Positions 2,483-44,030 of a stretch of DNA of 49,217 nucleotides are shown here, piece by piece; positions within the stretch are counted from its first letter, which is position 1, and each line of letters begins with the position of its first letter. The notes under the pieces were generated by a model, which did no database searches, was not told the origin of the DNA, and saw only the letters and a program-made list of their open reading frames with translations. Origin of the DNA: Rickettsiales bacterium (GTDB taxonomy: Bacteria > Pseudomonadota > Alphaproteobacteria > Rickettsiales > UBA1997); the NCBI GenBank assembly GCA_033763375.1, contig JANRKR010000006.1, forward strand, positions 1 through 49,217, written 5' to 3'. The translations under genes and the position numbers were made by a program.

Positions 2483-2488
2483 AGCGTT

Positions 2489-3355
2489 TTAAATTCCGGT
2501 TACAGAAATTTTATATTTATAGGAAAGATATTTAAAAACATCGCGCCTTTCTTGAATTTGCAGGGCGCGATTATAAATAATAATTTCAGAAATTAATCCG
2601 TTATATGGATTTGTTGAGTTATATTGACTGCCAATGGTAAGTCCATTTAAAGAATTTGTTCCGGCATCAATTGTGGAATTACCCGCAGAAGTTGTGGCAT
2701 TATTTAGATAAGCTTTTGAAGATGAGCCGCTGAAATAAACCGCCATGATATAATTATTGTTAAGTGAAATATTGGCAGGATTAGAAGCTGTAGAAGTGCT
2801 GGCTGATATTCCGGCATTTAAAGTTATATTATTACTGTTTAAGGCAATTGAAGTTGAACTGGTTGAATTTGAGTCAGATATAGTAGCCAAAGTAACGCTG
2901 TTGGTTGGTCTAAAGACAATAAATATCGTGCTTTGAGTTAAGCTGCCTTGATAAAAACTGCTCAGATTAAAAGAAGCATTGGCTCCTGATATAAAACTTA
3001 CCGAAGGAATTTTATTAATACCGCTGATTTGATAAAGAACTTGAGCCGAGGCGCTACGAGTTAAGCTATTTCTTTTAGCAATTCTAGAGCTGGGAGAAAT
3101 GTCATACCAAGTGCTGATTTGTCCAGAATTATATGCCTCACTTTTGATAAAGCTGTCGTCGAGCGAGGCTTCATACCAAGCAGTTAAACCATTTATTGTT
3201 GGTACTACTGATTTTGCGGTGAAAGATCTGGCGCTGTTAATTCTGGCGGATTTAACTACTCCTGAACCGCTAATAACACCAGCAATCAGAATGCCGATTA
3301 TTAAAATAACAATTGCCAATTCAATTAGTGAAAAAGCGGAGTAGTTTTTTTTCAT
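2489..3355 (-). CDS. prepilin-type N-terminal domain protein with LamG-like domain (paralog of 1613..2482)
   Basis: N-terminus MKKNYSA|FSLIELAIVILIIGILIAG. C-terminus YNGLISEIIIYNRALQIQERRDVF. The start overlaps the gcvPB stop by 4 nt (ATGA at 3352-3355). Confidence 0.6.
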   Translation of the reverse strand: MKKNYSAFSLIELAIVILIIGILIAGVISGSGVVKSARINSARSFTAKSVVPTINGLTAWYEASLDDSFIKSEAYNSGQISTWYDISPSSRIAKRNSLTRSASAQVLYQISGINKIPSVSFISGANASFNLSSFYQGSLTQSTIFIVFRPTNSVTLATISDSNSTSSTSIALNSNNITLNAGISASTSTASNPANISLNNNYIMAVYFSGSSSKAYLNNATTSAGNSTIDAGTNSLNGLTIGSQYNSTNPYNGLISEIIIYNRALQIQERRDVFKYLSYKYKISVTGI

Positions 3356-6925: not shown

Positions 6926-8178
6926 AACTTTAGCAGTTCAAATTGTATAACATCAGTTCTTTTGGCGCTAAAACCCGCGGCGCAGTAAGATAAATAAAAA
7001 CGCCATTTGCGAATAAATTCTTCACTAAAACCCAAAGCTTTTATTCGATCATGATTTTGATCAAAATTTTTAAGCCAAATTAAAAGTGTTTTAGCGTAAT
7101 CAAAACCAAAATTAGTTTCGCTTTTTATAGCAAAATTATGTTTTTTTGCTAGATCGCGAATTGTGGTTTTTGCAGGTAAAATTCCGCCCGGAAAAATATG
7201 TTTTTGAATAAAATCAACGCGATTTATATAATCTTTAAAAACCTGTTCATCGATAGTTATAATTTGTAAAACCGCAATTCCGCTGGTTTTAAGAGAATTG
7301 TTGATAGTTTGAAAATATTTATCCCAATAATCTTGTCCAACCGCTTCAAACATTTCAATTGAAACTACATTGTCGTAGACTGCTTTTTCGTCGCGATAAT
7401 CCTGCAATTTGATTTCAACTAAATTTTCAGCATTAATTTTTCTGATACGATTTTGCGCGTAAATTTTTTGCTTTGATGAAAGAGTCAAGCAAGTAACTTT
7501 ATAATTATTTTGCGAGGCAATTTCTGCAAATCCGCCCCAACCGCAGCCAATTTCAAGAATAGAATTTCCGGTTAATTTTGCTAAAATATTTTGATATTTT
7601 TGTTTTTGAGCTTTTTGTAAATCGTCATTTTGATCAATAAACAAAGCGCTGGAATAAGTCATTGATTGATCAAGCCACAATTCATAAAAATCATTACCTA
7701 AATCGTAATGCGCGGCGATATTTTTTTTGCTGCCGCGTTTGGTATTTTTAGAAAAAAAACTTTTTAAAAAAAGTAACAAAGCTTGAAATTTTCTGGCGTG
7801 AAAAAAATCTTCCAAAGCATGAGAATTAAGCGTGAAGAATGTTAATAATTCTGGCAAGTTGGAGCTTTCCCACATTTTTTGCATATAACATTCGCCTAAA
7901 GCAACATCGCCGCCAGTTATAATTGCATCAATTAAATCATAATTTTTGATTTCCATTTCCGCATTTGGTCCAAAATTTTTACCTTGAAATTCTTTGCTTG
8001 AACCATCGGGAAAAACTATTTTAAGTGAACCAAAATCAATACGGCTCAACGCTTGCCAGATAAAATCGTAGTTTTTATTTTTAATCAAATTCAAATCATG
8101 TTTGAATTTGGGCTCATTTGCAATCAAATTATTTTTTTTAAAAAGTTTAGTTTCTTGAATTATCTTGGTTAAATTCAT
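6922..8178 (-). CDS. cyclopropane-fatty-acyl-phospholipid synthase-like SAM-dependent methyltransferase
   Basis: 418 aa with HYDLGNDFYELWLDQSMTYSSALF and the SAM motif ILEIGCGWGGFAE. Confidence 0.85.
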   Translation of the reverse strand: MNLTKIIQETKLFKKNNLIANEPKFKHDLNLIKNKNYDFIWQALSRIDFGSLKIVFPDGSSKEFQGKNFGPNAEMEIKNYDLIDAIITGGDVALGECYMQKMWESSNLPELLTFFTLNSHALEDFFHARKFQALLLFLKSFFSKNTKRGSKKNIAAHYDLGNDFYELWLDQSMTYSSALFIDQNDDLQKAQKQKYQNILAKLTGNSILEIGCGWGGFAEIASQNNYKVTCLTLSSKQKIYAQNRIRKINAENLVEIKLQDYRDEKAVYDNVVSIEMFEAVGQDYWDKYFQTINNSLKTSGIAVLQIITIDEQVFKDYINRVDFIQKHIFPGGILPAKTTIRDLAKKHNFAIKSETNFGFDYAKTLLIWLKNFDQNHDRIKALGFSEEFIRKWRFYLSYCAAGFSAKRTDVIQFELLKL

Positions 8179-10233: not shown

Positions 10234-11042
10234 ACAATTTTTTTAGTTAGAAAAAAGAAGATTGAGTAAGGTAAAAGGCGTAAAATTTTTAAAAGAAAAG
10301 TGAACTTTTTGGGAAAATGAATCTCAAATTTTTTTGCTTCCAATCCTTTTAAAATTTTTTTTGCCGCTAATTCTGACGAGATTATAAAAGGCATTTTAAA
10401 AGAATTTTTATCAGTTAAACGCGTTTTAACAAAACCCGGATTGATAACAGATAAATCAATGTTGTGACTTTTTAACTCGGGATAAATTCCTTCACAAAGA
10501 TTTATCAAAGCAGCCTTGGAAGCTCCATAAGCAAAAGATTTTGGCAAACCGCGATAACCAGCAACGCTTGCAATAACGGCAATTTGACCGGATTTTTGCT
10601 CCACCATTTTTGGAATTATAATGTCGAATAAATTTAAGCAGCCAATTAAATTTACCTGAATTGTTTGTTTGGCAATTGCCAAATCAAAATTGATTACAGA
10701 AGTTGGCTGATAAAGCGCCGAGCAGAAAATTACCAAATCGATTTTACCAAAATCTTGCAAAATTTTATCACAAGTTTTTTCCAAAGAATTGTAATCAACA
10801 ACATCAGTTTTTGTGACTGTAATTTCATCAGATTTTTTGTGAAGATTTTTTTTTAGTAAGTTTCGCTCAATTTCAAAAAGTTTATCTTGGCTGCGCGCAG
10901 AAATAATTAAATTATAATTTTGTGAAAAAATTTCTTGCGCCAAAGCTTCGCCAATTCCGTGACTAGCGCCAATAATCCAGCAGGTTTTTTTATCGGATGA
11001 TTGCTGAGAAGATAATTTTTTTCTTGTAAATAATTTTAGCAT
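10230..11042 (-). CDS. short-chain dehydrogenase/reductase (SDR)
   Basis: 270 aa with WIIGASHGIGEALA (TGxxxGIG-type) and the catalytic YGASKAAL (YxxxK). Confidence 0.85.
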   Translation of the reverse strand: MLKLFTRKKLSSQQSSDKKTCWIIGASHGIGEALAQEIFSQNYNLIISARSQDKLFEIERNLLKKNLHKKSDEITVTKTDVVDYNSLEKTCDKILQDFGKIDLVIFCSALYQPTSVINFDLAIAKQTIQVNLIGCLNLFDIIIPKMVEQKSGQIAVIASVAGYRGLPKSFAYGASKAALINLCEGIYPELKSHNIDLSVINPGFVKTRLTDKNSFKMPFIISSELAAKKILKGLEAKKFEIHFPKKFTFLLKILRLLPYSIFFFLTKKIV

Positions 11043-11602: not shown

Positions 11603-12876
11603 TTTTTAAGAAGTAAAATTGTTATAATTTTTAATATACAAGGAAGCAAAGCGTAAAAAAAAGCTATTAAATTTAGATCGCGCCAAGCCAAATTTTGTGA
11701 CCAATTTTCAGGTTGATAACCAAAAAATCCTAAAACAATTAAACTGGTAGAAGCGGCAATCATTAAACCTAATTTTGCTACTAAATTCCACATTGAAAAA
11801 TAAGACGAAGCTAATTCTTTTTTGGATGAAATTATTTGAGCCAAAATTATCGGTGGTGCAATCAAATCACAGCCTAAAAATATCCCAGAAAAAAAACAAA
11901 CGAAATAAAAATATTGCCAAGTTTGATTGTCTAAAAAGTAGGCTAAAAAGAAAGTTAAAACCGAGAAAGAGATTGATAAAATCCATAGTTTTATCACGCC
12001 GATTTTGTTAAATAAAATTTTCCAAATTGGGATAAAAAAACAAGCCGACAAAAAATAAATGCTTAAAAACCAACCTAGATTTTTTTCACTGTTTAAAACT
12101 TCGCGAATATAGAAATTTAGATTAGCTGCTGGCAAACTTACCGCAATTGAATTAACCAAAAAAATTAATAAAAAAAATAGAAATTTTTGATCACGCCAAA
12201 CTGCTAAAAAAGTTATTTTTTTTGAAAAACTGGCAGAAATTTTTTGGCTTAAATTTTCATTATCAATTTGTATTTTTGGTAAAAAAAACAAAACAGCCAA
12301 AACTATTAAAACAGCAAAAGTAAGGCTTAAAACATGATAATTCTGTTGATCACTTTGCGCTAAATTTTGCACCAAAATTGTTGGCAAAATAAAGGCAAGA
12401 ATCATACCAATTAAACCCAAAAATTCTTTGCAAGAATTGATGATAATTCTTTCGCGATCATCTTTGGCGATGATTGCAATTAAAGCCTCAAAGTTAATTA
12501 TGGTGAAATTAAAAAAACTATAAGTGAAAATTAAAGTGATGAAAAACCAAGTGATGGCTAAATTTTTGTTAAGAAATAAAGGCGGATTAAAAACCAAATA
12601 AAAACTTAATACTAAAAATAGCGCCGAAACGCTGATAATTTTTTGGCGAGAAATTTTTTTACGCGCCAGATAATCAGAAAAATAGCCAATTAATGGATCT
12701 TGCAGCGCATCAACTACACGAATAAAAATCAGTAAAATTCCAATCAAAGTTAAGCTAAGTTGAAATTTTTGCGCGTAAAAATCGCTAATATTTAAATAAA
12801 TTGGAATGCCAACAAACGCTAAAGGTAAAGCTAAAAAACTTAAGAAAAAAATTTGCGACTTTTTTATTGGTGTCAT
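11569..12876 (-). CDS. MFS / glycoside-pentoside-hexuronide-type transporter
   Basis: 435 aa and polytopic (about 12 hydrophobic segments). It has the GPH-family loop motif RVVDALQDPLIGYFSD. Confidence 0.7.
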   Translation of the reverse strand: MTPIKKSQIFFLSFLALPLAFVGIPIYLNISDFYAQKFQLSLTLIGILLIFIRVVDALQDPLIGYFSDYLARKKISRQKIISVSALFLVLSFYLVFNPPLFLNKNLAITWFFITLIFTYSFFNFTIINFEALIAIIAKDDRERIIINSCKEFLGLIGMILAFILPTILVQNLAQSDQQNYHVLSLTFAVLIVLAVLFFLPKIQIDNENLSQKISASFSKKITFLAVWRDQKFLFFLLIFLVNSIAVSLPAANLNFYIREVLNSEKNLGWFLSIYFLSACFFIPIWKILFNKIGVIKLWILSISFSVLTFFLAYFLDNQTWQYFYFVCFFSGIFLGCDLIAPPIILAQIISSKKELASSYFSMWNLVAKLGLMIAASTSLIVLGFFGYQPENWSQNLAWRDLNLIAFFYALLPCILKIITILLLKKWQKLSIQESF

Positions 12877-31613: not shown

Positions 31614-32027
31614 ATGATAGTTGGCGTTGGAAACGACTTAATTTCTGTTCTCAGAGTTCAGAATATAATTTTTAAATTCAAAGAAAAATTTGCCAAAAAA
31701 ATTTTTACTAAAAACGAATTGTTGCAAGCAAAAACTCTAAAAATATCTGCAGAAAATTTTTTACCATTAGCAAAATTTTACGCCAAGAGATTTGCCGCTA
31801 AAGAAGCTTTTGCCAAAGCTTTAGGTCTTGGAATTGGCAGAGGAATTAACTTTAAAGACATTGAAATTTTTAATGATAAATTTGGCAAGCCAGCTATTAA
31901 AATTTTAAATCACAAAGAAAATTTTATTAAAAATCATTTTCACTGCGAAAATTTTGCAATTCATTTGTCGCTTTCTGATGAAGAAAATTTAGCCAGTGCT
32001 TTTGTTGTAATTGAAAAAATCTCATGA
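31614..32027 (+). CDS. acpS: holo-[acyl-carrier-protein] synthase
   Basis: 137 aa starting MIVGVGNDLISVLRV, with FAAKEAFAKALG. Confidence 0.85.
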   Translation: MIVGVGNDLISVLRVQNIIFKFKEKFAKKIFTKNELLQAKTLKISAENFLPLAKFYAKRFAAKEAFAKALGLGIGRGINFKDIEIFNDKFGKPAIKILNHKENFIKNHFHCENFAIHLSLSDEENLASAFVVIEKIS

Positions 32028-33007
32028 AAAAAATTATCGTAATTGGCGCCGGCGCCTGGGGAACTTCAATCGCTAATCTTTTGGCGCGCAATTCTCAGCA
32101 AGTTTTTTTAAACGCTAATCAACAAAAAATTATTGATGAAATTAATCACAACAACACCAATAACAGATTTTTGCCGGAAGTAAAATTAGATAAAAAAATC
32201 ACAGCAATAATTGATTTTACTGATCAAATAAAAAGTGCTGATTTGGTTTTTATTGTTACGCCAAGCGCCAATGCTACAATAATTTTTAAAAAAATTGCGG
32301 CATTAAAAATTAAAAAAACTTGTGGATTTGTAATTTGCTCAAAAGGTTTTGAACATCATTCTTTAATGCTTTTAAGCGATGCTTTTGAAAAATTTACTGG
32401 CATAAAAAATTATGCAATTTTATCTGGTCCAAATTTTGCTCTTGAGGTTGCAAATCAAGAGCCAACAATTACTACAATTGCTTCACGAAATAAAAAATTA
32501 GCCAAAGAAATAATCGCAGTTTTAAACAATGAAAATTTTCAGGCGCAATATTTCTCTGATCCGCGCACCGCAGAAATTTGCGGAATTATTAAAAATATTA
32601 TCGCCATTGGTTGTGGAATTATTGACGGTCTTAAATTGGGCGAAAATGCCAAAGCGGCTTTGGTTATGAAAGGAATTAACGAAATTCAAATTTTGTCTAA
32701 AAAATTAAAAGCCAGTGAAAACTTAAACCATGCTGCTGGTTTTGGTGATATTTTTCTTACTTGCTCATCGCCAAAATCGCGTAATTATTCACTTGGAATT
32801 CTCTTGGCGCAAGGAAAGTCATACCAGCAAATTGCCAAAGAAACTGGAAAAACTTACGAAGGTGAATTTTCAGCTGGAGCAATTTCAAAAATTGCCAAAA
32901 AACTAAAATTGCAACTAGACTTGTGCGCAAATATAAATGATATTTTAAGTCGCAAACACAGCGCCACTCAAATCAAAACTCTAATTTCAAAATCAATTTT
33001 AAGTTAA
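32024..33007 (+). CDS. gpsA: NAD(P)H-dependent glycerol-3-phosphate dehydrogenase
   Basis: 327 aa with IIVIGAGAWGTSIA, SGPNFA.EVA and NYSLG motifs. Confidence 0.9.
   Translation: MKKIIVIGAGAWGTSIANLLARNSQQVFLNANQQKIIDEINHNNTNNRFLPEVKLDKKITAIIDFTDQIKSADLVFIVTPSANATIIFKKIAALKIKKTCGFVICSKGFEHHSLMLLSDAFEKFTGIKNYAILSGPNFALEVANQEPTITTIASRNKKLAKEIIAVLNNENFQAQYFSDPRTAEICGIIKNIIAIGCGIIDGLKLGENAKAALVMKGINEIQILSKKLKASENLNHAAGFGDIFLTCSSPKSRNYSLGILLAQGKSYQQIAKETGKTYEGEFSAGAISKIAKKLKLQLDLCANINDILSRKHSATQIKTLISKSILS
32953..33007 (+). repeat. left copy of a 55-bp direct repeat (gpsA 3' end)
   Basis: A base-by-base comparison with 37303..37357 (offset exactly 4350 nt) gives 54/55 identical. Identity stops at both edges. 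Confidence 0.9.
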
Positions 33008-34098
33008 CTTCTACTCTTCCTGTTTTCTTCAATATCACTTTGGTAACCGGCCCTTTTTGCGCTTGCTTTCTTTATTATGGTATTGGGAGCTTCGCTAATA
33101 TTACCTGATTTTTGCTGCGGTTCGTTGTAGTTATCAATTTTTTGAATGACTTCTCTACTTTCTCTTGGTTTTATTATCTCAACAATATTTCTTGCTTTTT
33201 CTAACTCTCTTAGCATTCCGTCCCATAACTTTGCTTGGTGATCCAAAAATATTAATCCTCCTTCTCTGACTTGCTCAATGTGAGTCAGACTCTCTAAGCA
33301 AGCTGATTCGACAGTTTTTCTTGCCATTTTTTCGTGTTGTTTTTCAACGCTTTTATCTTCGCGTAATTGATCTTTATGAACAGTAAAAAACCTAGCAATA
33401 TTCTTATATTCTTTTGGCTCGTAATAACTCTTATAAGGGTCAAAAAAAGCTTTTCTAAAATTATCCAACATACTATCGGCAGCTAATTCGTGAGCCCAAG
33501 TATTCCCAGCGATAACAGGATATTGTCTTGTAAAAATATCTTCTTTTGCTTTTCTATATTCCTCCACTTCTGGCAGTAATACTTCTGATTTTTCCACATC
33601 GGTCATTCGGGCAACTGGATCAAGTCCAAAAACTCTTATTCCATGAATATTATGACTCTCCAACAAGAGCTGGGAATGTATCTTTTTCACATTGCCTCCG
33701 CCCATCTTATTACTTAAATTTTTGAAACCCAATACAGCTGCATCAAAGTCTCCATAGAGTACTGAAGCTCTCAGGGTTGAGGCAATTGATGGAATTTCTA
33801 ACTGAGATCTGCGAAAAAAATTATCTCTATAAATCAAAAATTGTTTTGCCGTAAATCCTTCTTTAGAGCGCTCTTCTAGATAAACAAATAAAGGATGCTT
33901 TAAAGCCTTATGCTCAGAAAACTCATGTGCAACAGGGTCTAATTTTTTTACAATTTCTTTTCTAAAATCTTCAGAAAGATAGAAACTTTTTTGGGGGTAA
34001 TAATTTCTTACTGCAATGGAAAACAGACCCGACCTTGCAATTGTTGTATTTAAACTGTTGATGGCGCGAATTCCTTTCATTGTGAATAGTAAAAACAA
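33004..34098 (-). CDS. heme-oxygenase-like fold protein (iron-containing redox enzyme / CADD-PqqC-TenA-like), disordered C-terminal tail
   Basis: 364 aa. The motif pattern is HPLFVYLEE, GGGNVKKIHSQLLLES, WAHELAADS and FFTVHKDQLREDKSVEKQHEKM, reminiscent of E/H-rich helix pairs of heme-oxygenase-like di-iron proteins. The assignment is from memory of the family pattern only. Confidence 0.4.
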   Translation of the reverse strand: MFLLFTMKGIRAINSLNTTIARSGLFSIAVRNYYPQKSFYLSEDFRKEIVKKLDPVAHEFSEHKALKHPLFVYLEERSKEGFTAKQFLIYRDNFFRRSQLEIPSIASTLRASVLYGDFDAAVLGFKNLSNKMGGGNVKKIHSQLLLESHNIHGIRVFGLDPVARMTDVEKSEVLLPEVEEYRKAKEDIFTRQYPVIAGNTWAHELAADSMLDNFRKAFFDPYKSYYEPKEYKNIARFFTVHKDQLREDKSVEKQHEKMARKTVESACLESLTHIEQVREGGLIFLDHQAKLWDGMLRELEKARNIVEIIKPRESREVIQKIDNYNEPQQKSGNISEAPNTIIKKASAKRAGYQSDIEENRKSRS

Positions 34099-34259
34099 TT
34101 AATAATCGGTGTAGTGTTGCTTGCTGGGTGTTTATTAATGAAACAACTTAACGGCCATTTTTGACTTTATTAAGAAAAAACAAGGCAAAAGAACTAATCT
34201 ACAGATTAGGTTGCGCCGCCTTCATTTACAAATTGGACTACGAGTTAATCACTAAAAAA

Positions 34260-36398
34260 ATGCCAAACCAAAACCACCTATCTCTTAAAAACTATTTTAT
34301 TTTTGTTTTAGCTACAATTTTTCTTGTGGCTTTAACAGCTTTGGTTTTGGTATTTGTTATATCAAAAAGTAATCACAAATCTCGCATCGAATTATCGCAA
34401 AAAGAAGCTGTAAATATTGAAAAAACAATTTCTGAATCATTTAGCTACTGCAACAAAATTAGCAGTTATGTTGGCAAGCAAATTGCCCAACATGGAAGCA
34501 ATGATTTACAATTTATTTTAAAAATATTTCGTCAGACAGATGAAGAAAAAAACAGAAATTCACAATTGCTTTCCTGGTCCTCTTTCGACTTTGTTGCGCC
34601 AAATAATTTGCAGTTAGTTAATGGCAAAGTTGGCGTAAGAAAAGATCCGCCAGATATGTCGGAAAGGCAATATTGCATTCGCTCTAAAGAAAAGCCTTGG
34701 AGTTTGCAGGTTTCTTTTCCGGTTTTTGGTAACCCAAGTGGATCTTGGGTAATTCCTGTGGGAACGGGAATTACTGATGATAAAGGAAAATATTTGGGAA
34801 TTATTGTCGTTGGAATTGATATTTTTGAGCTAACTGCTCTTGTTGAAAAAAGACTTATTAGTCAAAGCAGTTTCGTGGTTTTGGATGAAAATCAAAACAT
34901 TATAATTCAATCAAAAGATGCTGAAACTGATAATGAAATTTACCGCAAAAAACTTGCACAATTTAACTTCAAAGAAAAGTCGGGAATAATTTTTAAAGAC
35001 TTAACCATTGGCAAAATTAAGTATTTTTATTATCAGAAATTCGACGATTATCCCTACATTGTTTTAACTGGTTTTAATAAAGTTTTATTAGAGAAGGAAT
35101 TTAACAATTCGGTTCTGCCAATCGTTGGCGGATCAGTGATAATTACTTTTTTCTTCCTGATGATATTATACTTATTTAAGGCAAGAATTTTACTCTTGAT
35201 TAAGAAAGAAATATATTTGCAAAAGTCGCTATTAAAAAGAGACGATCTCATTAATTCTAAAACCAGACTAATTAGAGCGGTCAGTCACGATTTGAAAAAT
35301 TATATTTTTGGCATTTCCGGCCTTTCACATCTAATTTTACAGGGCAAAAACAAATCAGAAATTGAAGAAAGCGAAGATCTAAAAATGGTGGAAGAGCTAC
35401 ATCATCAATCAGAAGAATTGATGGGTTTTGTTGAAGATTTACTTGATACCAACCAAAACCAAGCTGGTGAATTTAGCTTAGGCAAAAAGCAAGTTTGCAA
35501 TGTTGTTGATCTGGTAAAGAGAATGATAATTTTAAACAAAAACTTCGCTTTAGAAAACCGTATTGATCTTGAATTTGACAATCAAACAAAGCACAAAGTA
35601 GTTAATGTTGAGTGCGATGTGCGCAGGCTGAAACAAGTCTTAAACAACATCATAAGTAACGCTGTTAAATACAGCAATTCTGGCAGTGTGGTAATTTTGC
35701 AAATTACTTTACTTGAAGAAAGCGGTGAAGTTTGCATTGCTGCAATTGATCAAGGAATTGGCATGAGCGAAGATGAAATTAAAATAGCCCTACTTGGTAA
35801 TGGAGAAAAAATTACTAAAAATGGTTTGAATAAATCTTTTGATTCCCATGGTCTTGGTATTCCGATTATCAAGAAATTAATTGAGCTGCACCGAGGAAGG
35901 CTAGAAATAAATTCCGCCAAAGGCTATGGCACCGAAATTAAAATTTATCTCGCAACTTATGACGATAATAAAAACACCCTAAATGAAGAAATTTACCAAG
36001 CTGGCAGCATCAATAATAAATTTAAAAATAAGGCGGCTCTAATTGCGGAAGATAACGCAATTACTAATAAAGTGATTACGTTTCTGCTGCGCAAAATGGG
36101 TTTTAATGTTAAGCATGTAGAAAATGGTGAAGAGATTTTAGAGCAATTGGATAAGCAGCATTTTGATTTGGTTTTTCTCGATATTAACATGCCAAAATTA
36201 GGCGGATTTGAAACGGCAAAGACGATTAGAGAAGGTAAAAACTTCAAGAGATTTAAGAATCATAACATTCCAATTATTGCGGTCAGCACAGAAAAACAGG
36301 AGCTTTCTAATCTTAAACTTCATGGCATTAATATGCTTCTTGGAAAACCATTTTCTGAAAAAGAGTTAATCGATTTTGTGATGGGGTGCATGAATTGA
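34260..36398 (+). CDS. hybrid sensor histidine kinase (TM - Cache-like periplasmic domain - TM - HisKA - HATPase_c - receiver)
   Basis: H-box RLIRAVSHDLKNY. N-box NIISNAVKYS. G-boxes DQGIGM and HGLGIPIIKKLIELHRG. The receiver has ALIAEDN, LVFLDINMPKLGG and LLGKPF. I place the start at ATG 34260 rather than the tracked TTG 34161. Confidence 0.85.
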   Translation: MPNQNHLSLKNYFIFVLATIFLVALTALVLVFVISKSNHKSRIELSQKEAVNIEKTISESFSYCNKISSYVGKQIAQHGSNDLQFILKIFRQTDEEKNRNSQLLSWSSFDFVAPNNLQLVNGKVGVRKDPPDMSERQYCIRSKEKPWSLQVSFPVFGNPSGSWVIPVGTGITDDKGKYLGIIVVGIDIFELTALVEKRLISQSSFVVLDENQNIIIQSKDAETDNEIYRKKLAQFNFKEKSGIIFKDLTIGKIKYFYYQKFDDYPYIVLTGFNKVLLEKEFNNSVLPIVGGSVIITFFFLMILYLFKARILLLIKKEIYLQKSLLKRDDLINSKTRLIRAVSHDLKNYIFGISGLSHLILQGKNKSEIEESEDLKMVEELHHQSEELMGFVEDLLDTNQNQAGEFSLGKKQVCNVVDLVKRMIILNKNFALENRIDLEFDNQTKHKVVNVECDVRRLKQVLNNIISNAVKYSNSGSVVILQITLLEESGEVCIAAIDQGIGMSEDEIKIALLGNGEKITKNGLNKSFDSHGLGIPIIKKLIELHRGRLEINSAKGYGTEIKIYLATYDDNKNTLNEEIYQAGSINNKFKNKAALIAEDNAITNKVITFLLRKMGFNVKHVENGEEILEQLDKQHFDLVFLDINMPKLGGFETAKTIREGKNFKRFKNHNIPIIAVSTEKQELSNLKLHGINMLLGKPFSEKELIDFVMGCMN

Positions 36399-37261
36399 TG
36401 AAAATTTCACTACCTATAAAATCCAAAGCACATGAATCGCGCATAAAAGAAATTGCTGAAATTATTATTAAATCGGCAAAAGACAAAATCGCTTTTTTGA
36501 TTTTATTTGGCTCTTTTGCGCGCGGTACTTGGGTTCGTTATAAATATGCTGAAATGGGCGTGGTTTATGAATACGCTTCTGATTACGATTTTTTAATTAT
36601 TACTAAAACTGGCAAACAAGCCAATGGCAACACAGCTTTTGATCTTGAGAGAAAGATTAAAAAAGCAATTGAGAACTCAACGCCAATTAGAGAAATACAT
36701 CGCAGCCATATTATTATTGAGTCGGTCAATCGCGTGAATGAAGAGCTCGAGAAATCGCAATATTTTTTCTCTGACATTAAGAAAGAAGGAATTTTGCTTT
36801 ACGATTCTGGAGAATTTGAATTGTCTAATCCAAAAGAATTTAACAAAGAGCAAAGAGAAAAAATTGCCAAACTAAATTATGAGCATTGGCTTGCCAGCGC
36901 CAACGGATTTTTGATTGATTGCGAAAGTGCCTTTAAGCGAAATGATTATAAAAGAGCCTCGTTTTATCTGCATCAAGCAACAGAAAGTCTTTACAGTTGT
37001 GCTTTATTAACCCTTGGCGGATACAAACCAAAATCTCACAATCTTGAAGAATTAAACCAGCTCTGCATTTTTTATTCTCCTGATTTCTTAACGATTTTCC
37101 CCAAAGCTATTAAAGAGCAAAAAGAATGTTTTGAGCTTTTGCAGCGGTCTTACATAGAAGCTCGTTATAGTGAATATTTCTGTATCACCAAAGCGCAATT
37201 AGAATATTTGATTGCAAAAGTTGAGGGACTGAAAGGCTTGGTTAAAAGTGTTTGTTGTTGA
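36398..37261 (+). CDS. fused nucleotidyltransferase (MNT/Pol-beta-type) - HEPN domain protein
   Basis: The N-terminal half has LFGSFARGT...SDYDFLII (GS...DxD NTase motif). The C-terminal half has KRASFYLHQATESLYSCALLTLGGYKPKSHNLEEL and SYIEARYSE, typical of the PF05168-type HEPN pattern. ATG 36398 overlaps the kinase TGA (TGATG); an in-frame GTG lies at 36386. Confidence 0.7.
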   Translation: MKISLPIKSKAHESRIKEIAEIIIKSAKDKIAFLILFGSFARGTWVRYKYAEMGVVYEYASDYDFLIITKTGKQANGNTAFDLERKIKKAIENSTPIREIHRSHIIIESVNRVNEELEKSQYFFSDIKKEGILLYDSGEFELSNPKEFNKEQREKIAKLNYEHWLASANGFLIDCESAFKRNDYKRASFYLHQATESLYSCALLTLGGYKPKSHNLEELNQLCIFYSPDFLTIFPKAIKEQKECFELLQRSYIEARYSEYFCITKAQLEYLIAKVEGLKGLVKSVCC

Positions 37262-37302
37262 AAATTTCTTTAAAAAAGAAAAGTTATGGCTAGTGTTGTT
37301 TA

Positions 37303-37357
37303 CAAACACAGCGCCACTCAAATCAAAACCCTAATTTCAAAATCAATTTTAAGTTAA
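37303..37357 (+). repeat. right copy of the 55-bp direct repeat (relic gpsA 3' end abutting guaA)
   Basis: See 32953..33007. It is embedded in a 23-codon relic ORF (37286..37357, [23 protein letters not shown]). Confidence 0.9.
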
Positions 37358-38892
37358 TGTCCAACTCAATTTTAATTATCGACTTTGGTAGTCAGGTAAC
37401 ACAATTAATTGCGCGCAGAATTCGTGAGCTTGGTGTTTTTTGTGAGGTGAAAAATCCTGACATCGCGCTTGATCAAATTAAAAAAATTGCACCTAAGGCG
37501 ATTATTTTTTCTGGCGGGCCGGCGTCAGTTTATGAAAAAAACGCGCCAACAATTGATAAAAAAATTTTCGATTTAGGCGCGCCAATTCTTGGAATTTGCT
37601 ATGGCGAGCAATTAATCTGTCATTTGCTTGGCGGCAAAGTTGGCAAATCTTTTGAGCGCGAATTTGGTAAGGCTGAAATTAAAATAATTTCCAATTCGCC
37701 ACTTTTAAAAACTCTGAAAAGCAAGCAAGTTTGGATGAGTCATGGCGATCACATCAGCAAAATTCCGGCAGGTTTTAAAGTTATTGCGGTCACGCCAAAA
37801 GCGCCTTACGCGGCAATTGCTGATGAGAAAAGAAAAATTTACGGCGTGCAGTTTCATCCTGAAGTTGTTCATTCAATTGATGGCAAAAAAATCATCGAAA
37901 ATTTTGTGATGAAAATCGCTGGCTGTAAGGCCGAATGGACAATGAAAAATTTCAAAAAAGATGAAATTTTAGAAATTAAAAAAATTGTCGGCAAAAATCG
38001 CGTAATCTGCGGACTCAGTGGTGGCGTGGATTCATCGGTTGTTGCAGCGTTGATTAATGAGGCAATTGGCAAACAATTAACTTGCATTTTTGTTGATCAC
38101 GGACTTTTGCGCAAAGGCGAGGGCGCGGAGGTTAAAGAAGTTTTTCACAAAAAATTTAAAACTAATTTGGTTTATGTTGATGCTTCCAAGCTTTTCTTAT
38201 CAAAGCTAAAAGGCGTTTTGGATCCTGAGAAAAAACGTAAAATTATCGGCAAAACTTTTATTGAAGTTTTTGATCGCGAGGCAGCAAAAATCAAAGACGC
38301 CAATTTTTTGGCGCAAGGAACTTTATATCCCGACGTGATTGAATCTTCGCACCCAAATAAAGGCGCTTCTCACACTATTAAGTCGCATCACAATGTTGGC
38401 GGCTTGCCAAAAAAAATGAAATTAAAATTGCTCGAACCAGTTCGCATGCTGTTCAAAGACGAAGTGCGTTTGCTGGGTCGTGAGCTTGGTTTGCCTGAAC
38501 ATGTTGTTGGGCGTCATCCTTTTCCGGGCCCAGGACTTGCAATTAGAATTATTGGCGAAATCACGCCAGAAAAAATAAAAATTTTACAAGAAGCTGACGC
38601 AATCTATATTGAAGAAATCCGCAAGGCGGGATTATACAACGAGATTTGGCAAGCGTTTAGTGTGTTGCTCCCAATTAAAACTGTTGGCGTAATGGGTGAC
38701 GCCAGAACTTATGAAAACGTCTTGGCACTGCGCGCCGTCACCTCAATTGATGGTATGACCGCTGACGTTTATCGCTTCGATTCCGAATTTCTCTGTAATG
38801 TAACTAATCGCATCATCAACGAAGTGCGCGGCATCAATCGCGTGGTTTATGACTTCACTTCCAAGCCACCGGGAACTATTGAGTGGGAATAA
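37357..38892 (+). CDS. guaA: GMP synthase (glutamine-hydrolysing)
   Basis: 511 aa. It has a GATase domain ([15 protein letters not shown]), the ATP-PPase P-loop [10 protein letters not shown] and a C-terminal GTIEWE. Confidence 0.92.
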
Positions 38893-38921
38893 TCTTGCGT
38901 CGCTTCTTATAAAAACTAGTC

Positions 38922-38955
38922 AGCCGCCTTCACAATAAATTCTGCGAAGGCGGCT
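38922..38955 (+). terminator. 10-bp perfect GC-rich stem (agccgccttc / gaaggcggct) with 14-nt loop downstream of guaA
   Basis: Read directly. There is no clear T-run afterwards, so terminator function is tentative. Confidence 0.3.
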
Positions 38956-39163
38956 TCAGTGGCTATTGCCAATTTGTTAGCTTTATCTCAGATCGAGTAT
39001 ATTATTTAGTCAAAGACTTTTTTCCGTTAGCCTAGAAAAAAATGCCTTGAGATAGAAGGTAAAATACAACAGAAACTTTAAACATTTAAAAAATACGAAT
39101 CGCTGTTTATAGTTTGGTGCTATTGCTTCAAAGGCTTTTAAGCTTTTAATGTTAGTGGAAGCT

Positions 39164-39541
39164 TTATTTTTTCTCTTTACGAACTTCTTTTACTACAGCT
39201 TTGCAGGAAGAAACATCATTGGCATTTGCGCTAACTTTAATTTCTTTGCCTTTTAAATTAGCAGATTTGCTTTCAAGAACTTGGGCAAAACAATTTCTCC
39301 ACAAGCCTTTTCCTTCTTTAAATCCGCCAGCAACGAAGCCTAATTTTTTACATTCGCCAAGAATATTTTGGCAGGCAGAATTTTTTTCAATTTCAGCGCG
39401 AAGAGCGATTTCTTTAGCGTCAATGTCGGAATTTTCGTGATGATTTTTTGCTTTGGTTGCAATTGTTTCTTGAGCATTGGCAGTTGTTGCTAAAGCAAGA
39501 AAAGCGCAAATCGACAAAGTGGTTAAAAAAGTTTTTTTCAT
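39164..39541 (-). CDS. small secreted Cys-containing protein
   Basis: 125 aa with a signal peptide (..LALATTANAQ) and four Cys in the mature part. It is Lys-rich. The gene is monocistronic, flanked by 271-bp and 184-bp non-coding regions. Confidence 0.5.
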   Translation of the reverse strand: MKKTFLTTLSICAFLALATTANAQETIATKAKNHHENSDIDAKEIALRAEIEKNSACQNILGECKKLGFVAGGFKEGKGLWRNCFAQVLESKSANLKGKEIKVSANANDVSSCKAVVKEVRKEKK

Positions 39542-39725
39542 AAAAATTTTAATTTAATTAATAAATGGCTTTGAAAATTAAAGCTTGTCAACTCAAGTAA
39601 AATAAGAGCTAAATTAAGCAAGAATAAGTTCTATTTTTAAGAAGATTAATTCAAAAAAACTTTTGCCTAATTTGCTTTCAATATGCACGATTGCGAAAAA
39701 AAACTAAATCTAATTTTTAAAATCT

Positions 39726-41051
39726 ATGCCAAAATTTGAACTTCCATATTTGCAAAAAATTTCTGCGGATAAAAAAATTCTCTATAAAAATGCCCGCATA
39801 ATTGATCCTGAATCAGGATATGACAAGCTTGGCAGCCTTTTAACAATTGGTGATAAAATTGCCGATTTTGGTGAAAATGTTTCGGCGTCAGACGCTGAAG
39901 TTGTTGATTGTAAAGGCCATGTTTTATCTCCTGGATTAATCGATATTCAAGTTCACTTCCGCGATCCCGGGCAAACTCATAAAGAAGATTTAGCTTCAGG
40001 AAGCAAGTCGGCAGTAGCTGGCGGAATCACAACTGTGGTGTGTCAACCAAATACCATTCCAACTCTCGACTCGGTTTTAACTTTTGATTACTTGCGCTTA
40101 AAAGCCATTGAGGCGGCTTATTGCAACGTCAAAGCCTATGGCTGCATTACCAAAGGCATGAAAGGCGAAGAACTTGCCGACATGCACTCGCTTAAAGAAG
40201 CGGGAGCAGTTGGTTTTACTGACGATGGTTTGCCAGTTATGAATGCTAATGTCATGCGTCGCGCTTTTGAATATTCTAAAAATTTAAACGTAGTAATTGC
40301 TCAGCACGCCGAAGATTTAAATTTGACTAACAAAGGCTGTATTAATGAAGGCAAAGTGTCGCTTGAACTTGGCGTGCGCGGTATTCCTAACATTTCTGAA
40401 AGCGTGATTGTAGAGCGCGATTTGGCGATTCTTGAAAGCACGGGCGGACGTTATCACTTGCTGCACGTTTCAACCGCGCAAGCTTTAGATGCAATTAAGC
40501 GCGCCAAAGCAAAAGGCTTGAATGCCACAGTTGAAGTGTCGCCACATCATTTTACTTTAACTGATGCGCAAGTTTTAAAATCAGGAACTAACGCTAAAAT
40601 GAATCCGCCACTTCGAAGTGAAGCTGATCGCGACGCTTTAATTGAAGGCTTGCGCTCTGGTTTGATTGACGCTATTGCCACCGATCACGCGCCGCACGAT
40701 GAGCTTTCCAAAGAAAAAACTTTAGAAGAAGCAACCTTTGGCATTGTTGGCGTTGAAACCATGCTGCCACTTTCTTTGGCGCTTTATCATCAAGGCGTTT
40801 TAAGCTTAAAAGACTTGCTTGCCAAAATGACTTGCAACGCTGCAAAAATAATTAACTTTGACGGCGGCGTAATCAAAAAAGGTGCGCGCGCTGATTTAAC
40901 GCTGATTGATCTTAACCATGAATGGACAATCGATTCGCAAAAATTTCACTCAAAATCAAAAAATTCACCATTTGATGGCTTTAAAGTAAAAGGTCGCGCC
41001 ATCATGACCACAGTTGGTGGGAAAATAGTTTATGATGAAAAAAATATTTAA
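39726..41051 (+). CDS. pyrC: dihydroorotase (class I, long form)
   Basis: 441 aa with DIQVHFRDPG (the HxH-type metal site is QVH here), GGITTVVCQPNT and ATDHAPH. Confidence 0.85.
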   Translation: MPKFELPYLQKISADKKILYKNARIIDPESGYDKLGSLLTIGDKIADFGENVSASDAEVVDCKGHVLSPGLIDIQVHFRDPGQTHKEDLASGSKSAVAGGITTVVCQPNTIPTLDSVLTFDYLRLKAIEAAYCNVKAYGCITKGMKGEELADMHSLKEAGAVGFTDDGLPVMNANVMRRAFEYSKNLNVVIAQHAEDLNLTNKGCINEGKVSLELGVRGIPNISESVIVERDLAILESTGGRYHLLHVSTAQALDAIKRAKAKGLNATVEVSPHHFTLTDAQVLKSGTNAKMNPPLRSEADRDALIEGLRSGLIDAIATDHAPHDELSKEKTLEEATFGIVGVETMLPLSLALYHQGVLSLKDLLAKMTCNAAKIINFDGGVIKKGARADLTLIDLNHEWTIDSQKFHSKSKNSPFDGFKVKGRAIMTTVGGKIVYDEKNI

Positions 41052-42057
41052 AACACGCTCGGCAAAGCTTATTTTTTATTGCCTGATTCTGGCGATCCTA
41101 AATTTTTTTTTAACCAATAAAGAAGGCTCAATTCTTCAGCCGCTGGTTGGAATTTTATTTTACGCGGCTATTTTTAGCATTTTTTTTGATTGCTATAAAA
41201 GGCGTCTTCCAACCTTTGTTGGCGCTATCACAGCGCTTTTAATAATTATATATATAATCGCCTATCAACTCAGCCAAAACCAGTTTAATAAAATTGATCA
41301 AGAAATCAGCGCCGCCCAAAAGCAGTCAACTAAAATTGCCTTCGACATTAAATCCGACAAGTTAGTTTTTGCTCAAGATTTAGGTGTTTATAAAATAAGA
41401 TCATTGATGCAGTTTTATGATTTTCCGGCAATTTACTTCAAAACTTCTGATCCCAAAAAATTTATTTCTTATAGTATTTTTGACCAAGATTTTTGTCGCC
41501 AATTAACAAAAAAACTTGGGCTAAAAAGTGCAAATTCTCCATCGCAAAAAGAAATTGAAGAAGATGATAAGAATGACGATCCTGGTGTGGTTTTGGTTGG
41601 GGTTAGCGAGCAAGTTTTTTCCTCGCCAAATAGTGAAATTGCGGTTTCTTATTTAAAAAACTTTCAACCTTCAAGAACTTTGCAAAGCGGATGGGAAAGG
41701 CACAAAACAATAAGAAAGGTGTGTCTACTCAAACAAGTTGAAATCTTAGAAACTGACAGAATCTTTCACATCGATATTTCAACAAAAAAAAGACACGGTT
41801 TTATTTTTAATGCTGACGAAACTCATATAAAAATTACCACGCCGCAAAAAGAAGAAATTAATTTGATGGCCTCAGCCAGAATAATCAAAGAGCCATTTTT
41901 TGTTTTTCTTGGAATTAATAATCAGCAAAAAGGTTATGGTGAATATGAAATAGAAAAAATAACAAAAATCTTTTCAATTGAAGCTTCAAATATTGCGACT
42001 TCTTCTAGATTGCGTAGTAATGACGAAATTTTACCAAAAACTGTTGAAACAAAATGA
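41032..42057 (+). CDS. hypothetical membrane protein (3 N-terminal TM segments + ~250-aa soluble domain)
   Basis: 341-aa ORF overlapping pyrC by 20 nt and thiD by 4 nt. I recognise no family motif. Confidence 0.5.
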   Translation: MMKKIFKTRSAKLIFYCLILAILNFFLTNKEGSILQPLVGILFYAAIFSIFFDCYKRRLPTFVGAITALLIIIYIIAYQLSQNQFNKIDQEISAAQKQSTKIAFDIKSDKLVFAQDLGVYKIRSLMQFYDFPAIYFKTSDPKKFISYSIFDQDFCRQLTKKLGLKSANSPSQKEIEEDDKNDDPGVVLVGVSEQVFSSPNSEIAVSYLKNFQPSRTLQSGWERHKTIRKVCLLKQVEILETDRIFHIDISTKKRHGFIFNADETHIKITTPQKEEINLMASARIIKEPFFVFLGINNQQKGYGEYEIEKITKIFSIEASNIATSSRLRSNDEILPKTVETK

Positions 42058-42851
42058 CTGCAAAAATTTTAATTATTGCCGGTTCCGATCCAAGTGGCGG
42101 CGCGGGAATTCAGGCTGATATTAAAACTGCTAGCGCCAATAAAGTTTATTCATCAGCCGTAATTACTTGCTTGACGGCGCAAAATACTTGCAAAGTTTTT
42201 GATATTTTTTATCCGCCAATTGAATTTTTGCGCGCTCAAATTGCAGCAGTTTTGGATGATATAAAATTTGATGCCATAAAAATTGGTATGCTGGGAAATG
42301 CTGAAATTATTGATTGTGTGGCAGATGTTTTACAAAAAAAAGCTAAAAAAATTCCGCTAATTCTTGATCCAGTAATGGTTGCTACTTCGGGCGATTTATT
42401 GCTGAAAAAAAATGCGCTTGCGGCTTTAAAATCAAAACTCATTAAAAATGCTTTTATTGTAACGCCAAATATTGATGAAGCAGAAATTTTAGCCGAAATA
42501 AAAATTAAAAATTTAGAAGACATGAAGCGCGCCGCCTTGAAAATCAAAGCTTTAGGCTGTAAGTCAGTTTTGGTAAAAGGTGGGCATTTAAAATTTTTGG
42601 ATGGCAAAATTCACTCAATTTTACTTGATGAGAAAAATAAATTTCATGTGATTAGCAATCAAAAATTCGGTAATAAAAATTTACACGGAACTGGCTGCAC
42701 ATTGGCTTCAGCGCTTGCCTGTAACTTGGCTAAAAAAGTTTCGCTAGTTACAGCGGTTAAAAAATCTAATAATTATGTCTATGGCGCTATTTTAAAAAAT
42801 ATGAAAGTTGGCAAAGGTAGCAAAGTTTTGTGGCACTTTAGCGTTTTATGA
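42054..42851 (+). CDS. thiD: hydroxymethylpyrimidine/phosphomethylpyrimidine kinase
   Basis: 265 aa with ILIIAGSDPSGGAGIQADIKT, DPVMVATSGD and HGTGCTLASA. Confidence 0.88.
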   Translation: MTAKILIIAGSDPSGGAGIQADIKTASANKVYSSAVITCLTAQNTCKVFDIFYPPIEFLRAQIAAVLDDIKFDAIKIGMLGNAEIIDCVADVLQKKAKKIPLILDPVMVATSGDLLLKKNALAALKSKLIKNAFIVTPNIDEAEILAEIKIKNLEDMKRAALKIKALGCKSVLVKGGHLKFLDGKIHSILLDEKNKFHVISNQKFGNKNLHGTGCTLASALACNLAKKVSLVTAVKKSNNYVYGAILKNMKVGKGSKVLWHFSVL

Positions 42852-44030
42852 TTTGCCTTGAGCTTTAGAATTATTGTCCAGTTGTTTGGAAGAAGGTTTT
42901 TTTATTGATGATGAAGGCGCTAAGTCTAGTCCATTTTCTAGTGCTAAATCCTTTAAAGTTTTAAATGCTTCTGATTCTTTATTTTTAGATAATTTTTGTG
43001 CTGCTTGTATAATAATTTTCTTACCTTTTTTTCTTTCTTCTTCTTGACGTTCAGTAAAATTTTCACCTCTTGGCGGCACTAAAAATTTTATTATTTGACC
43101 AATATCTTTGTTCAATAAATTGCTTTCATTGATGTTGTTTTTTTGTGCAGCATCTTTTAGTGCTTTTAAAATTTTTTCTTCAGCTAAAATTTTTTTATTT
43201 CTTTCTTCGTAAAATGCTAATTGCTCTGGAGTTTTTTGTTCCTCTTCTTCTTTAAAAGCTTTAGTAACTTTTTTATAAGAAACTTGCTGTGAATTTATGC
43301 GATTGATAGCTTCCTGTTCTTCTTCGGCAATTTGTTTTGCCAAAGCTGCGTCTGAAATTATTTGATAGTTTGGTTTTTTGTCTTGACTTCCTTGGGTTTG
43401 TTCAGATTCATCAACAATAAATTTTTGTTCTAAAATTTGGGTGAAAATTGCTTCTGCCAGAATATTTTCAGGAGTATTTTCAGAGTTCAATGCTTGCTTA
43501 GTTTGAGAGAAAATATTAGCAGATTCTGTTTTATTTTTTTTAATAAAATTTATAACTTTAATTAAGATAGAAAAAGCTTCGTCTAAACTTTCAAATTCCT
43601 CTTTTAGGGGTTTTAAACTTTCTTCCAAAGAACTAATATCATTTGATTCTATCATGTCTCTAAAAAAGTGAGCTGCTGCACCATTAATAATTTCATCGTC
43701 GATGCTTTCTTCGTTTATAGTTTCTTCTGCATCAACTAAATCAGCATTAATAACTAGTTGTGTTGATGTACTTTCAACAGCTGTTGTAATTGATTTTATA
43801 AATTTAATATATCTTGGTATTGTCGAATTTTCTGCTTCAATTGTTTTCTCAATTAATCTATTCGTGGATTGTTTTTCTTCTATTATTTTTTTCTGGCTTT
43901 TAACATAGCCTAACTCCCTCGATTGTATATTTTGTGAATCTTTTTCGTTAGATATTGCTTTAAAATTAAGCATTGTACTAACAAATCCTATCACATCTAA
44001 CTCGTTTAAATTTTGATTAATGCTTTTCAT
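42846..44030 (-). CDS. hypothetical acidic coiled-coil-rich protein
   Basis: 394-aa uninterrupted ORF with no signal peptide or TM, rich in Glu/Lys/Gln. It contains SDAALAKQIAEEEQE (aa 226-240). Confidence 0.55.
   Translation of the reverse strand: MKSINQNLNELDVIGFVSTMLNFKAISNEKDSQNIQSRELGYVKSQKKIIEEKQSTNRLIEKTIEAENSTIPRYIKFIKSITTAVESTSTQLVINADLVDAEETINEESIDDEIINGAAAHFFRDMIESNDISSLEESLKPLKEEFESLDEAFSILIKVINFIKKNKTESANIFSQTKQALNSENTPENILAEAIFTQILEQKFIVDESEQTQGSQDKKPNYQIISDAALAKQIAEEEQEAINRINSQQVSYKKVTKAFKEEEEQKTPEQLAFYEERNKKILAEEKILKALKDAAQKNNINESNLLNKDIGQIIKFLVPPRGENFTERQEEERKKGKKIIIQAAQKLSKNKESEAFKTLKDLALENGLDLAPSSSIKKPSSKQLDNNSKAQGKS

Follow-up and report, generated by a model that had tools for sequence, protein, structure and literature searches.

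A three-gene islet with a 55-bp target duplication at the gpsA|guaA junction of a Rickettsiales bacterium

We analyzed a stretch of 49,217 nucleotides from a Rickettsiales bacterium (contig JANRKR010000006.1 of assembly GCA_033763375.1), here called the window, in which a cassette of about 4.3 kb and three genes separates the housekeeping genes gpsA and guaA. Coordinates given for the window refer to this whole 49-kb stretch, and the labels L001 to L023 denote loci or contigs of other genomes. The gpsA gene, encoding an NAD(P)H-dependent glycerol-3-phosphate dehydrogenase, occupies positions 32024-33007 of the plus strand and is intact (Pfam NAD_Gly3P_dh_N/C; NCBIfam NF000942, 295 bits), as is guaA, which encodes the glutamine-hydrolysing GMP synthase at 37357-38892 on the same strand (NF000848, 820 bits). 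A preliminary description, made from the letters of the sequence, had noted that the last 17 codons and the stop codon of gpsA (32953-33007) recur at 37303-37357, and a base comparison together with blastn reproduced this duplication in full: 54 of 55 positions agree between copies spaced a constant 4350 nt apart, the only mismatch being T/C at 32979/37329, and identity drops off sharply outside both edges, so that the two copies enclose an insert of 4295 bp. The left copy is the functional 3' end of gpsA, while the right copy is a relic of the gpsA tail that now lies upstream of guaA and ends in TAATG, whose ATG is the guaA start.

The relic still forms part of a reading frame. An open reading frame (ORF) of 23 codons, as had been described, runs on the plus strand from 37286 to 37357 and comprises five insert-derived codons, one codon that spans the junction and the 17 duplicated gpsA codons; its terminal TAATG preserves the stop/start overlap with guaA. 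Its ATG and first five codons are supplied by the non-coding end of the insert, a stretch of 41 nt (37262-37302) that resembles no cassette end of the other loci. On the opposite side, the stop codon of the minus-strand ORF of the insert, which had been said to abut the left repeat, is indeed located there, at 33004-33006, but it falls within the last 4 nt of the repeat rather than beside it, and it overlaps the gpsA stop in the tetranucleotide TTAA (33004-33007). No third copy of the 55-mer occurs on either strand of the window even when up to 12 mismatches are allowed, and a blastn comparison of flank against flank gave this pair an E value of 7e-20, while the next-best pair reached only 0.003. 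The 55-bp repeat is the sole long high-identity direct repeat within the 49 kb. A multi-copy repeat, which the preliminary description had named as a finding that would overturn its reading, is thereby ruled out within the window.

The first cargo gene (33004-34080, minus strand) encodes a protein of 358 amino acids assigned to the heme-oxygenase-like diiron oxidase (HDO) fold on the basis of its homologues, an AlphaFold (AF2) model and Foldseek. Many of its 35 homologues carry PF14518, the model has a pLDDT of 81.7, and its top matches in the PDB are a CADD-like protein, HrmI, BesC, FlcD, CT610, UndA and PolF, with a Foldseek probability of 1.0 and TM(target) values of 0.77-0.80 to the CADD-like protein, BesC and CT610; the predicted structure is thus that of a seven-helix heme-oxygenase-like protein. 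Ten histidine and glutamate residues (H57, H62, H135, H143, H146, H197, E198, H235, E246 and H249) are invariant across 28 homologues and would be candidates for the ligands of a diiron cofactor, and the C-terminus is full length relative to the homologues. Divergent from this gene lies the second one (34161-36398, plus strand; translation may in fact begin at the ATG at 34260), whose product combines, as judged from Pfam and NCBIfam, a dCache sensor with the HisKA, HATPase_c and receiver modules of a kinase. In Pfam, Response_reg (4e-20) and HATPase_c (6e-18) are well matched, whereas HisKA (24.9 bits, cut-off 26.9) and dCache_1 (39 bits, cut-off 45) stay below their cut-offs; in the orthologues, precomputed dCache_1 matches have E values of 1e-5 or lower for L003-L005, L021 and L022 and are weak in L023. 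With HisKA, HATPase_c and receiver in one protein, it is by domain content a hybrid two-component sensor histidine kinase. The third gene (36386-37261, plus strand) overlaps the kinase gene by 13 nt and encodes a fusion of a Pol-beta type nucleotidyltransferase (NTase) with a HEPN domain (HEPN, 2e-14; Polbeta; NTP_transf_2; HEPN match to PDB 4nqf).

Fold search and Pfam thus uphold the three gene identities proposed earlier. None of the three proteins is recombinase-like or a known defence protein, and a defence role for the cargo was discarded, as PADLOC returned matches at noise level only. From folds and gene order only, the cargo likely pairs an enzyme that makes or modifies a small molecule with a kinase that senses in the periplasm. 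The HDO-fold enzyme and the dCache hybrid kinase could represent an uncharacterised enzyme/sensor pair, for which a literature search on HDO-kinase pairs returned no description, and the recurrent passenger might be a portable pair of signal synthase and receptor.

To place the islet in an evolutionary context, we compared the junction with that of relatives obtained from a scan of one genome per species, which returned two relatives, and from a protein search. An islet-free gpsA-guaA arrangement is present in four related lineages on five contigs (L001, L002, L013 and L014/L015), whose gpsA and guaA products (compared for L001, L002, L013 and L014) are 70-79 % and 86-92 % identical to those of the window, respectively. 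In L002 (gpsA 70 % identical) the junction reads ...TAATGTCCAAC..., with a one-base overlap of gpsA and guaA, and in L013 (79 %, the closest in the protein search) the gpsA end likewise meets the guaA start in TAATG, so that the exact gpsA-TAATG-guaA arrangement is found in two of the four lineages. A short spacer separates the two genes in L014/L015 (75 %). L001 (76 %) retains TAATG but has acquired an insert of about 135 bp, built of palindromic hexamer repeats, before the guaA ATG. The one-base overlap in L002 and L013 is exactly the ancestral state that the preliminary description had predicted for gpsA and guaA, and these alignments confirm it.

Synteny is kept across the site in the order transhydrogenase (PNTB) gene, acpS-gpsA | guaA-pyrC-thiD-leuA. 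Leftward of the left copy, homology to the relatives' gpsA carries on, and rightward of the right copy homology to their junction runs on into guaA (alignment A4). The three genes of the insert are missing from all four lineages while the flanks remain syntenic, which bears out their earlier classification as accessory; the outcome named beforehand as a refutation, namely that relatives all carry the same genes at this site without repeats, does not hold. Given the colinear flanks and the empty sites, the islet was inserted in the lineage of the window, and 55 bp of the target were duplicated in the process. The protein search returned no relative whose gpsA is more than 79 % identical, and an exact-protein look-up of the window gpsA found it not to be on record; with the nearest relative only 79 % identical, the insertion is not closely datable.

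Other insertions were observed in the same comparison. The insert of L001 (6416-6560) is a perfect-looking palindrome of about 135 bp composed of TTAGTG/CACTAA hexamers, located between the retained TAATG and the new guaA ATG, and since it is a different small insert, the gpsA|guaA junction has been hit independently. Elsewhere in the window, three single-gene segments (38893-39725, 41032-42057 and 42846-44030) are missing from L013 and/or L002; they encode a probably secreted protein of 125 amino acids, a protein of 341 amino acids with a weak Wzy_C match and a protein of 394 amino acids assigned to no family, and no flanking direct repeats were found at any of the three.

The possibility that the islet was joined chimerically at a shared 55-mer during assembly has to be considered, as the window is a single contig of a metagenome-assembled genome (MAG) and the repeat has the length of a common assembler k-mer size, 55. 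Such an artefact appears extremely improbable to us. The two copies differ at position 27 and hence share neither a 55-mer nor a 33-mer, and two independent chimeric joins would have been needed at a sequence that is single-copy in an empty genome. Reading frames are intact across both junctions, on either side the flanks align colinearly with those of relatives, and the same architecture is repeated in L009, described below, with diverged (92 %) repeats and an independently assembled empty site. Assembly error, which had been listed beforehand as a possible refutation, is on these grounds judged unlikely.

The search for the same cassette in other contexts, suggested in the preliminary description, located the HDO-kinase pair in ten other loci, where the kinase orthologues are 57-77 % identical to that of the window and adjoin an HDO gene. 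In six of them (L003, L004, L005, L006, L007 and L021) the full order is found, in which the genes for HDO and dCache hybrid kinase point away from each other and NTase-HEPN comes next after the kinase, and the remaining four (L008, L009, L022 and L023) hold the two-gene core of kinase and HDO; NTase-HEPN is missing from L009, L022 and L023. In the closer clade the HDO and kinase genes are always adjacent and divergent; L010 has an HDO homologue without the kinase, and L011 has both genes in the same orientation. These ten loci lie in ten unrelated neighbourhoods, no two of which have a flanking gene in common, the sole cross-match between flanks stemming from a paralogous kinase domain that lies to one side of the module in one locus and to the other side in another. 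Because the same module occupies unrelated sites while the housekeeping flanks of the window keep synteny with relatives at comparable divergence, the HDO/kinase unit, with or without NTase-HEPN, emerges from these comparisons as a conserved accessory module that is horizontally mobile.

One of these loci, L009, provides a second, independent insertion with an identifiable empty site. Here, an insert of 3374 bp with kinase and HDO genes lies at the junction, overlapping by 4 nt, between another dCache kinase gene and pheA, and is enclosed by a direct repeat of 131/133 nt that is 92 % identical, corresponding to a target duplication of about 110-133 bp. The repeat takes in the final nucleotides of the upstream dCache kinase gene and, beyond the ATGA in which stop and start overlap, the initial ~100 nt of pheA. 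In two strains with PheA at 98 % identity, the NCBI MAG L016 and the Logan assembly L017, the kinase gene overlaps pheA with no insert, and their junction is colinear with the left flank plus repeat and with the repeat plus right flank of L009. The upstream copy in L009 is a relic with a 1-nt deletion, causing a frameshift, and private substitutions. Relative to the empty allele, both copies have four differences in common; the outer flanks match that allele at 163 of 164 positions. The four shared variants indicate that both copies descend from one chromosomal sequence and, together with the near-identical flanks, that the allele is older than the divergence of the flanks, which fits its spread or import by homologous recombination.

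In the same region, L016 (3213-7000) carries a trio of a response regulator, a 462-amino-acid protein with no assigned function and a dCache kinase upstream of pheA, which is absent from L018 (3206-3321) and L020 (6913-7001); in those relatives, with PheA 78-83 % identical, DAHP synthase and pheA are adjacent and divergent. As the trio is missing from them, the region upstream of pheA has received sensory genes twice.

The history of the L009 allele bears on an explanation that concerns the proximate origin of such alleles, namely a Campbell-type integration in which a circular copy enters through RecA-dependent recombination in a short chromosomal segment that the circle carries. A circle excised between the repeats would carry one repeat, and its re-entry into a related empty site would produce exactly the structure observed; an allele imported or spread in this way also fits the L009 flanks and shared variants, and a sister strain carries the HDO gene at 94 % identity, probably beside pheA. 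This route would nevertheless leave the first joining of target segment and cassette to be explained by an earlier duplicative event, 55 bp is close to the lower length limit for efficient RecA recombination, and neither a circular form nor a carrier replicon turned up in plasmid, phage or viral-contig collections, in which the HDO protein matched three plasmids at 24-28 % identity only and nothing among phages or viral contigs. For the window allele we regard it as quite unlikely.

The preliminary description had seen in the duplicated gene end the classic mark of site-specific integration and had named, among its options, an element that is decayed or mobilised in trans. In such a scenario, similar to a cis-mobilizable element (CIME), a tyrosine integrase would have targeted the 3' end of gpsA with an attP equal to its last 55 bp, and either only the cargo with attL and attR would be left or the element would depend for its movement on an integrase gene located at another place in the genome. 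A duplication that restores the 3' end of a protein gene is typical of such elements, the abrupt end of identity at both edges is as expected for them, and by definition CIMEs have lost their integration and transfer genes while attL and attR are kept (PMC5704250). Several results speak against this scenario. Among the 48 window ORFs of at least 100 amino acids, the three islet genes included, none encodes an integrase or transposase domain, whether Phage_integrase, resolvase or DDE. There was no tRNA, tmRNA or Rfam family in the window, and no integrase or remnant of one beside the cassette in any of the ten loci. The reported lack of integrase, transposase and tRNA consequently holds across the window, which is what the integrase search covered, and an enzyme acting in trans from the rest of the genome would be compatible with it. 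No relative bears any element at gpsA|guaA, the same cargo occurs at ten differing sites, and the decay would have required independent trimming to 0-46 nt of the cargo genes each time. The L009 insertion, moreover, duplicates an unrelated 5' gene end of about 130 bp, with both copies apparently derived from one chromosomal sequence. The site-specific scenario is in our assessment unlikely, and the footprint interpretation was not sustained by the ten sites, the unrelated second duplication and the lack of conserved ends, inverted repeats and an adjacent integrase.

The ends of the cassette point in the same direction. Terminal inverted repeats were not found in the window, L004 and L009 inserts, where the best inverted end alignments, gapped and mismatched, score 10-13 over 120 nt, and no conserved motif of the attC, pdif or att type lies beyond either cassette end across the 11 loci. 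Downstream of the distal gene, no word of at least 8 nt is common to three or more loci, and downstream of the HDO gene only A/T-rich 8-mers are. Between the window and L009, the duplicated segments have neither sequence nor length in common, and they are unstructured. Each of the six cassette boundaries that were inspected (window, L004 and L009) falls 0-46 nt from a terminal stop codon. Composition is uninformative on origin, and foreignness was rejected on this basis, since GC content, third-position GC (GC3) and synonymous codon usage are within the host range, tetranucleotide distance is 1.8 standard deviations above the mean, and cassette GC tracks each host, usually 2-5 points lower. 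A promoter and terminator scan round the junctions gave no excess over shuffles.

Mobilisation in trans by a transposase, either one that generates long variable duplications, as IS1549/IS1634 do, or through a composite transposon or a unit flanked by miniature inverted-repeat transposable elements (MITEs), draws its support from other cassette loci. In L008, contig ends that are inverted and 100 % identical (1-128 and 3604-3731) enclose kinase and HDO, the kinase-side copy stopping 3 nt from the kinase stop; they encode what looks like the C-terminus of a DDE_3/IS630-like transposase (NPIEQKWGHVK...), of which 35 amino acids are visible with a weak Pfam match (E = 0.2), and the arrangement resembles a composite transposon. 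The modules of L004 and L023 are flanked by direct copies of possibly repetitive elements. The inserts of the window and L009, on the other hand, have no terminal inverted repeats and show nothing of an insertion sequence (IS) or MITE where they end. Cassette ends vary from one locus to another, no transposase is present in the window, and elements of the IS630 type produce a TA duplication rather than one of 55-130 bp. We therefore consider transposase action at the window site very unlikely.

Dispersed repeat elements are present in these genomes, and most other flanking repeats are not target duplications. Several candidates were examined and set aside. The 82-nt repeat of L004 (87 % identical, within a 150-nt palindrome) and the 145-nt repeat of L023 (77 %, AT-rich and partly inverted) both enclose the module but are ambiguous and were not counted, and the 116-nt and 69-nt repeats of L021 look like MITE or IS ends. 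The repeat pair 12705-12829 / 14848-14973 of L009 turned out to be a multi-copy palindromic element. Flanking repeats at cassette loci beyond the window and L009 are thus probably MITE or IS copies, and, judged from the alignments, we count only these two as proven long target duplications.

Among these repeats, the palindromic family is intergenic (L009 12705-12829, 14848-14973 and 16811-16852; L016 8661-8818 and 12946-12987) and has the motif AAATCACCCGTCT...CTCTTTTTCAAAGAGGGCT...AGACGGGTGATTT, with a folding energy of -86 kcal/mol for 125 nt. Two direct copies in L009, a 128-nt pair, enclose a strain-specific gene for a 611-amino-acid protein with a beta-lactamase domain, an arrangement that suggests repeat-mediated exchange of cargo there. 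The L021 locus appears rich in MITE or IS debris: tandem repeats of ~130 nt lie at the contig end (4-314), reiterated GGGGACAG(A/T)A(A/T)... units and a palindrome stand beside the 69-nt repeat (10700-10810), and this repeat also abuts an N-terminally truncated nuoE-like fragment (3179-3505). In L014, the first ~130 nt of a gene for a leucine-rich repeat (LRR) protein are duplicated at 83 % identity (10837-10968 and 12554-12684); the duplicate is a frameshifted relic ORF of 80 amino acids upstream of an inserted 441-amino-acid ORF without a Pfam family, and it adjoins a truncated DDE_Tnp_1 gene. This is a possible third case of long duplication with other cargo and an architecture like that of L009. 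In the window itself, two tandem paralogues (1613-3355) with an N-terminal methylation motif and Laminin_G_3, pseudopilin-like, share a stretch of 158 nt at 70 % identity with an offset of 876 nt.

Considering these results together, the module entered a gpsA/guaA junction with a one-base overlap, and 55 bp of the target were duplicated, the left copy still completing gpsA and the right copy supplying the upstream sequence and TAATG of guaA. Both proven insertions lie at overlapping gene junctions, duplicate unrelated sequences of differing length and leave both neighbours intact. The explanation that we find best for the whole, and to which we give about an even chance, is a duplicative, non-site-specific illegitimate insertion of a mobile cassette, in which the duplication was retained for the sake of both genes. 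The insertion would have been made neither by a site-specific recombinase nor by a function encoded in the cassette. Two breaks about 55 nt apart may have been filled in after foreign DNA had been joined or, equivalently, a replication template switch may have run through the cassette and returned to the chromosome about 55 nt further upstream, and short homologies at the joints may have aided joining. The duplication would persist because an insertion into overlapping, probably essential genes could be tolerated only with both gene ends kept, the gpsA C-terminus or the guaA upstream region being lost otherwise. Once formed, the allele could spread between strains by homologous recombination in the flanks or be lost through recombination between the repeats.

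The details of the joints fit illegitimate joining. The TTAA at 33004-33007 is assignable either to gpsA (…GT TAA) or to the HDO gene's own stop, and this ambiguity, with an HDO protein of full length, is as expected from a joint at 4-5 nt of homology. The 9-nt word ATTTTAAGT occurs on the plus strand in the gpsA tail at 32942-32950, ending 2 nt short of where the duplicated segment starts, and again at 32996-33004, ending 3 nt before the right edge of that segment; in the empty L017 allele, a 9-nt direct repeat CCTTTCCAA lies at 6963-6971 / 7085-7093, near both duplication edges. The chance of a 9-nt repeat near both edges is about 0.015 for each of the two proven targets, in a test designed post hoc.

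Several points weigh against illegitimate duplicative insertion. The structure of the window comes from one MAG contig unbacked by reads, and only loci that carry the cassette were sampled, which introduces an ascertainment bias. The microhomology at the joint is putative, the 9-nt test was devised after the pattern had been seen, and in L009 the boundaries lack sharp definition. A decayed integrative element would also leave a gene 3' end duplicated over 55 bp, and the three repeat-less insertions elsewhere in the window make duplicative insertion not the sole route in this genome. Finally, the model leaves unexplained why all six boundaries lie within 0-46 nt of a stop codon, which is tighter than expected of random breakpoints and hints at defined ends or an excision rule that has not been recognised. 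Of the options raised in the preliminary description, an unrecognised insertion mechanism is the one that fits best.

Bacterial gene gain is usually credited to integrases, transposases or homologous replacement. Here, two verified insertions with empty sites put the same cargo into overlapping junctions with no encoded recombination function, and the lengths duplicated exceed many times over what nearly all known transposases produce. We entertain, as a tentative and rather unlikely proposal, that AT-rich, streamlined Rickettsiales-like bacteria gain cassettes through an undescribed, recombinase-independent duplicative insertion, either by template switch or by staggered-break capture bracketed by short direct repeats, which would copy 50-130 bp of the target and so enter overlapping junctions of essential genes harmlessly. 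If it operated generally, the gain of accessory genes by compact genomes, in which hardly any intergenic space is left, would be accounted for, and long target duplications bearing relic gene ends would be its signature in metagenomes. The conserved and mobile pair of HDO enzyme and dCache kinase, moreover, would be an uncharacterised sensory module of interest in its own right.

With respect to known systems, for which the literature searched on genomic islets with direct repeats and integrases offered nothing beyond general papers, the finding is a genomic islet with a target duplication that stands outside the standard element types, on few cases and with an inferred mechanism. The nearest textbook category is a CIME or decayed island at the 3' end of a protein gene, that is, an element without integration and transfer genes that retains attL and attR (PMC5704250), and the 55-bp repeat of the gpsA 3' end is a direct repeat of the kind such an element would leave. 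Unlike such an island, however, the islet has no cognate integrase-bearing element known at its site, its cargo is found at ten unrelated sites trimmed to 0-46 nt, and the L009 insertion duplicates another sequence, a 5' gene end of ~130 bp; as judged from the sequences, it departs from the category with regard to integrase, reuse of the site and the L009 case.

Long and variable target duplications of 8-514 bp, mechanistically unexplained, have been described for IS1549/IS1634 (PMC2266710). The duplications of the cassette are likewise far above the usual 2-14 bp and vary in length (55 against ~110-133 bp), but IS1549/IS1634 carry their own DDE transposase and terminal inverted repeats, whereas the cassette is 3.4-4.3 kb of cargo with no inverted repeats, no encoded transposase and no fixed short duplication length. 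The likeness to composite transposons or MITE-flanked modules is confined to the L008 pair between inverted IS630-like copies and to L004 and L023, between direct, possibly palindromic repeats. Two flanking IS copies are lacking in the window and seen only in L008, and the repeats of the window and L009 are unique gene sequence, single-copy at the empty sites.

Integron cassettes and Xer/pdif modules are small gene modules without a recombinase, bounded by attC or pdif sites and inserted with no target duplication. The present cassette is similarly compact, trimmed to its genes and found in many contexts, but, unlike them, it has no conserved site at its ends. Templated insertion, or short tandem duplication with filler DNA, of the type attributed to microhomology-mediated break-induced replication (MMBIR) or fork stalling and template switching (FoSTeS) is known mostly from eukaryotic genomics, and we know of no description of it as a bacterial route for horizontally transferred cassettes. 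In contrast to MMBIR cases, the donor template and the microhomology are putative in the window. The two nevertheless share a local tandem duplication, foreign DNA at the junction, independence from any enzyme encoded by the element, short direct repeats near the duplication edges and a possible homology of 4-5 nt at one joint, and MMBIR-type templated insertion would accordingly be, by analogy, the closest mechanistic counterpart of the gpsA|guaA islet.

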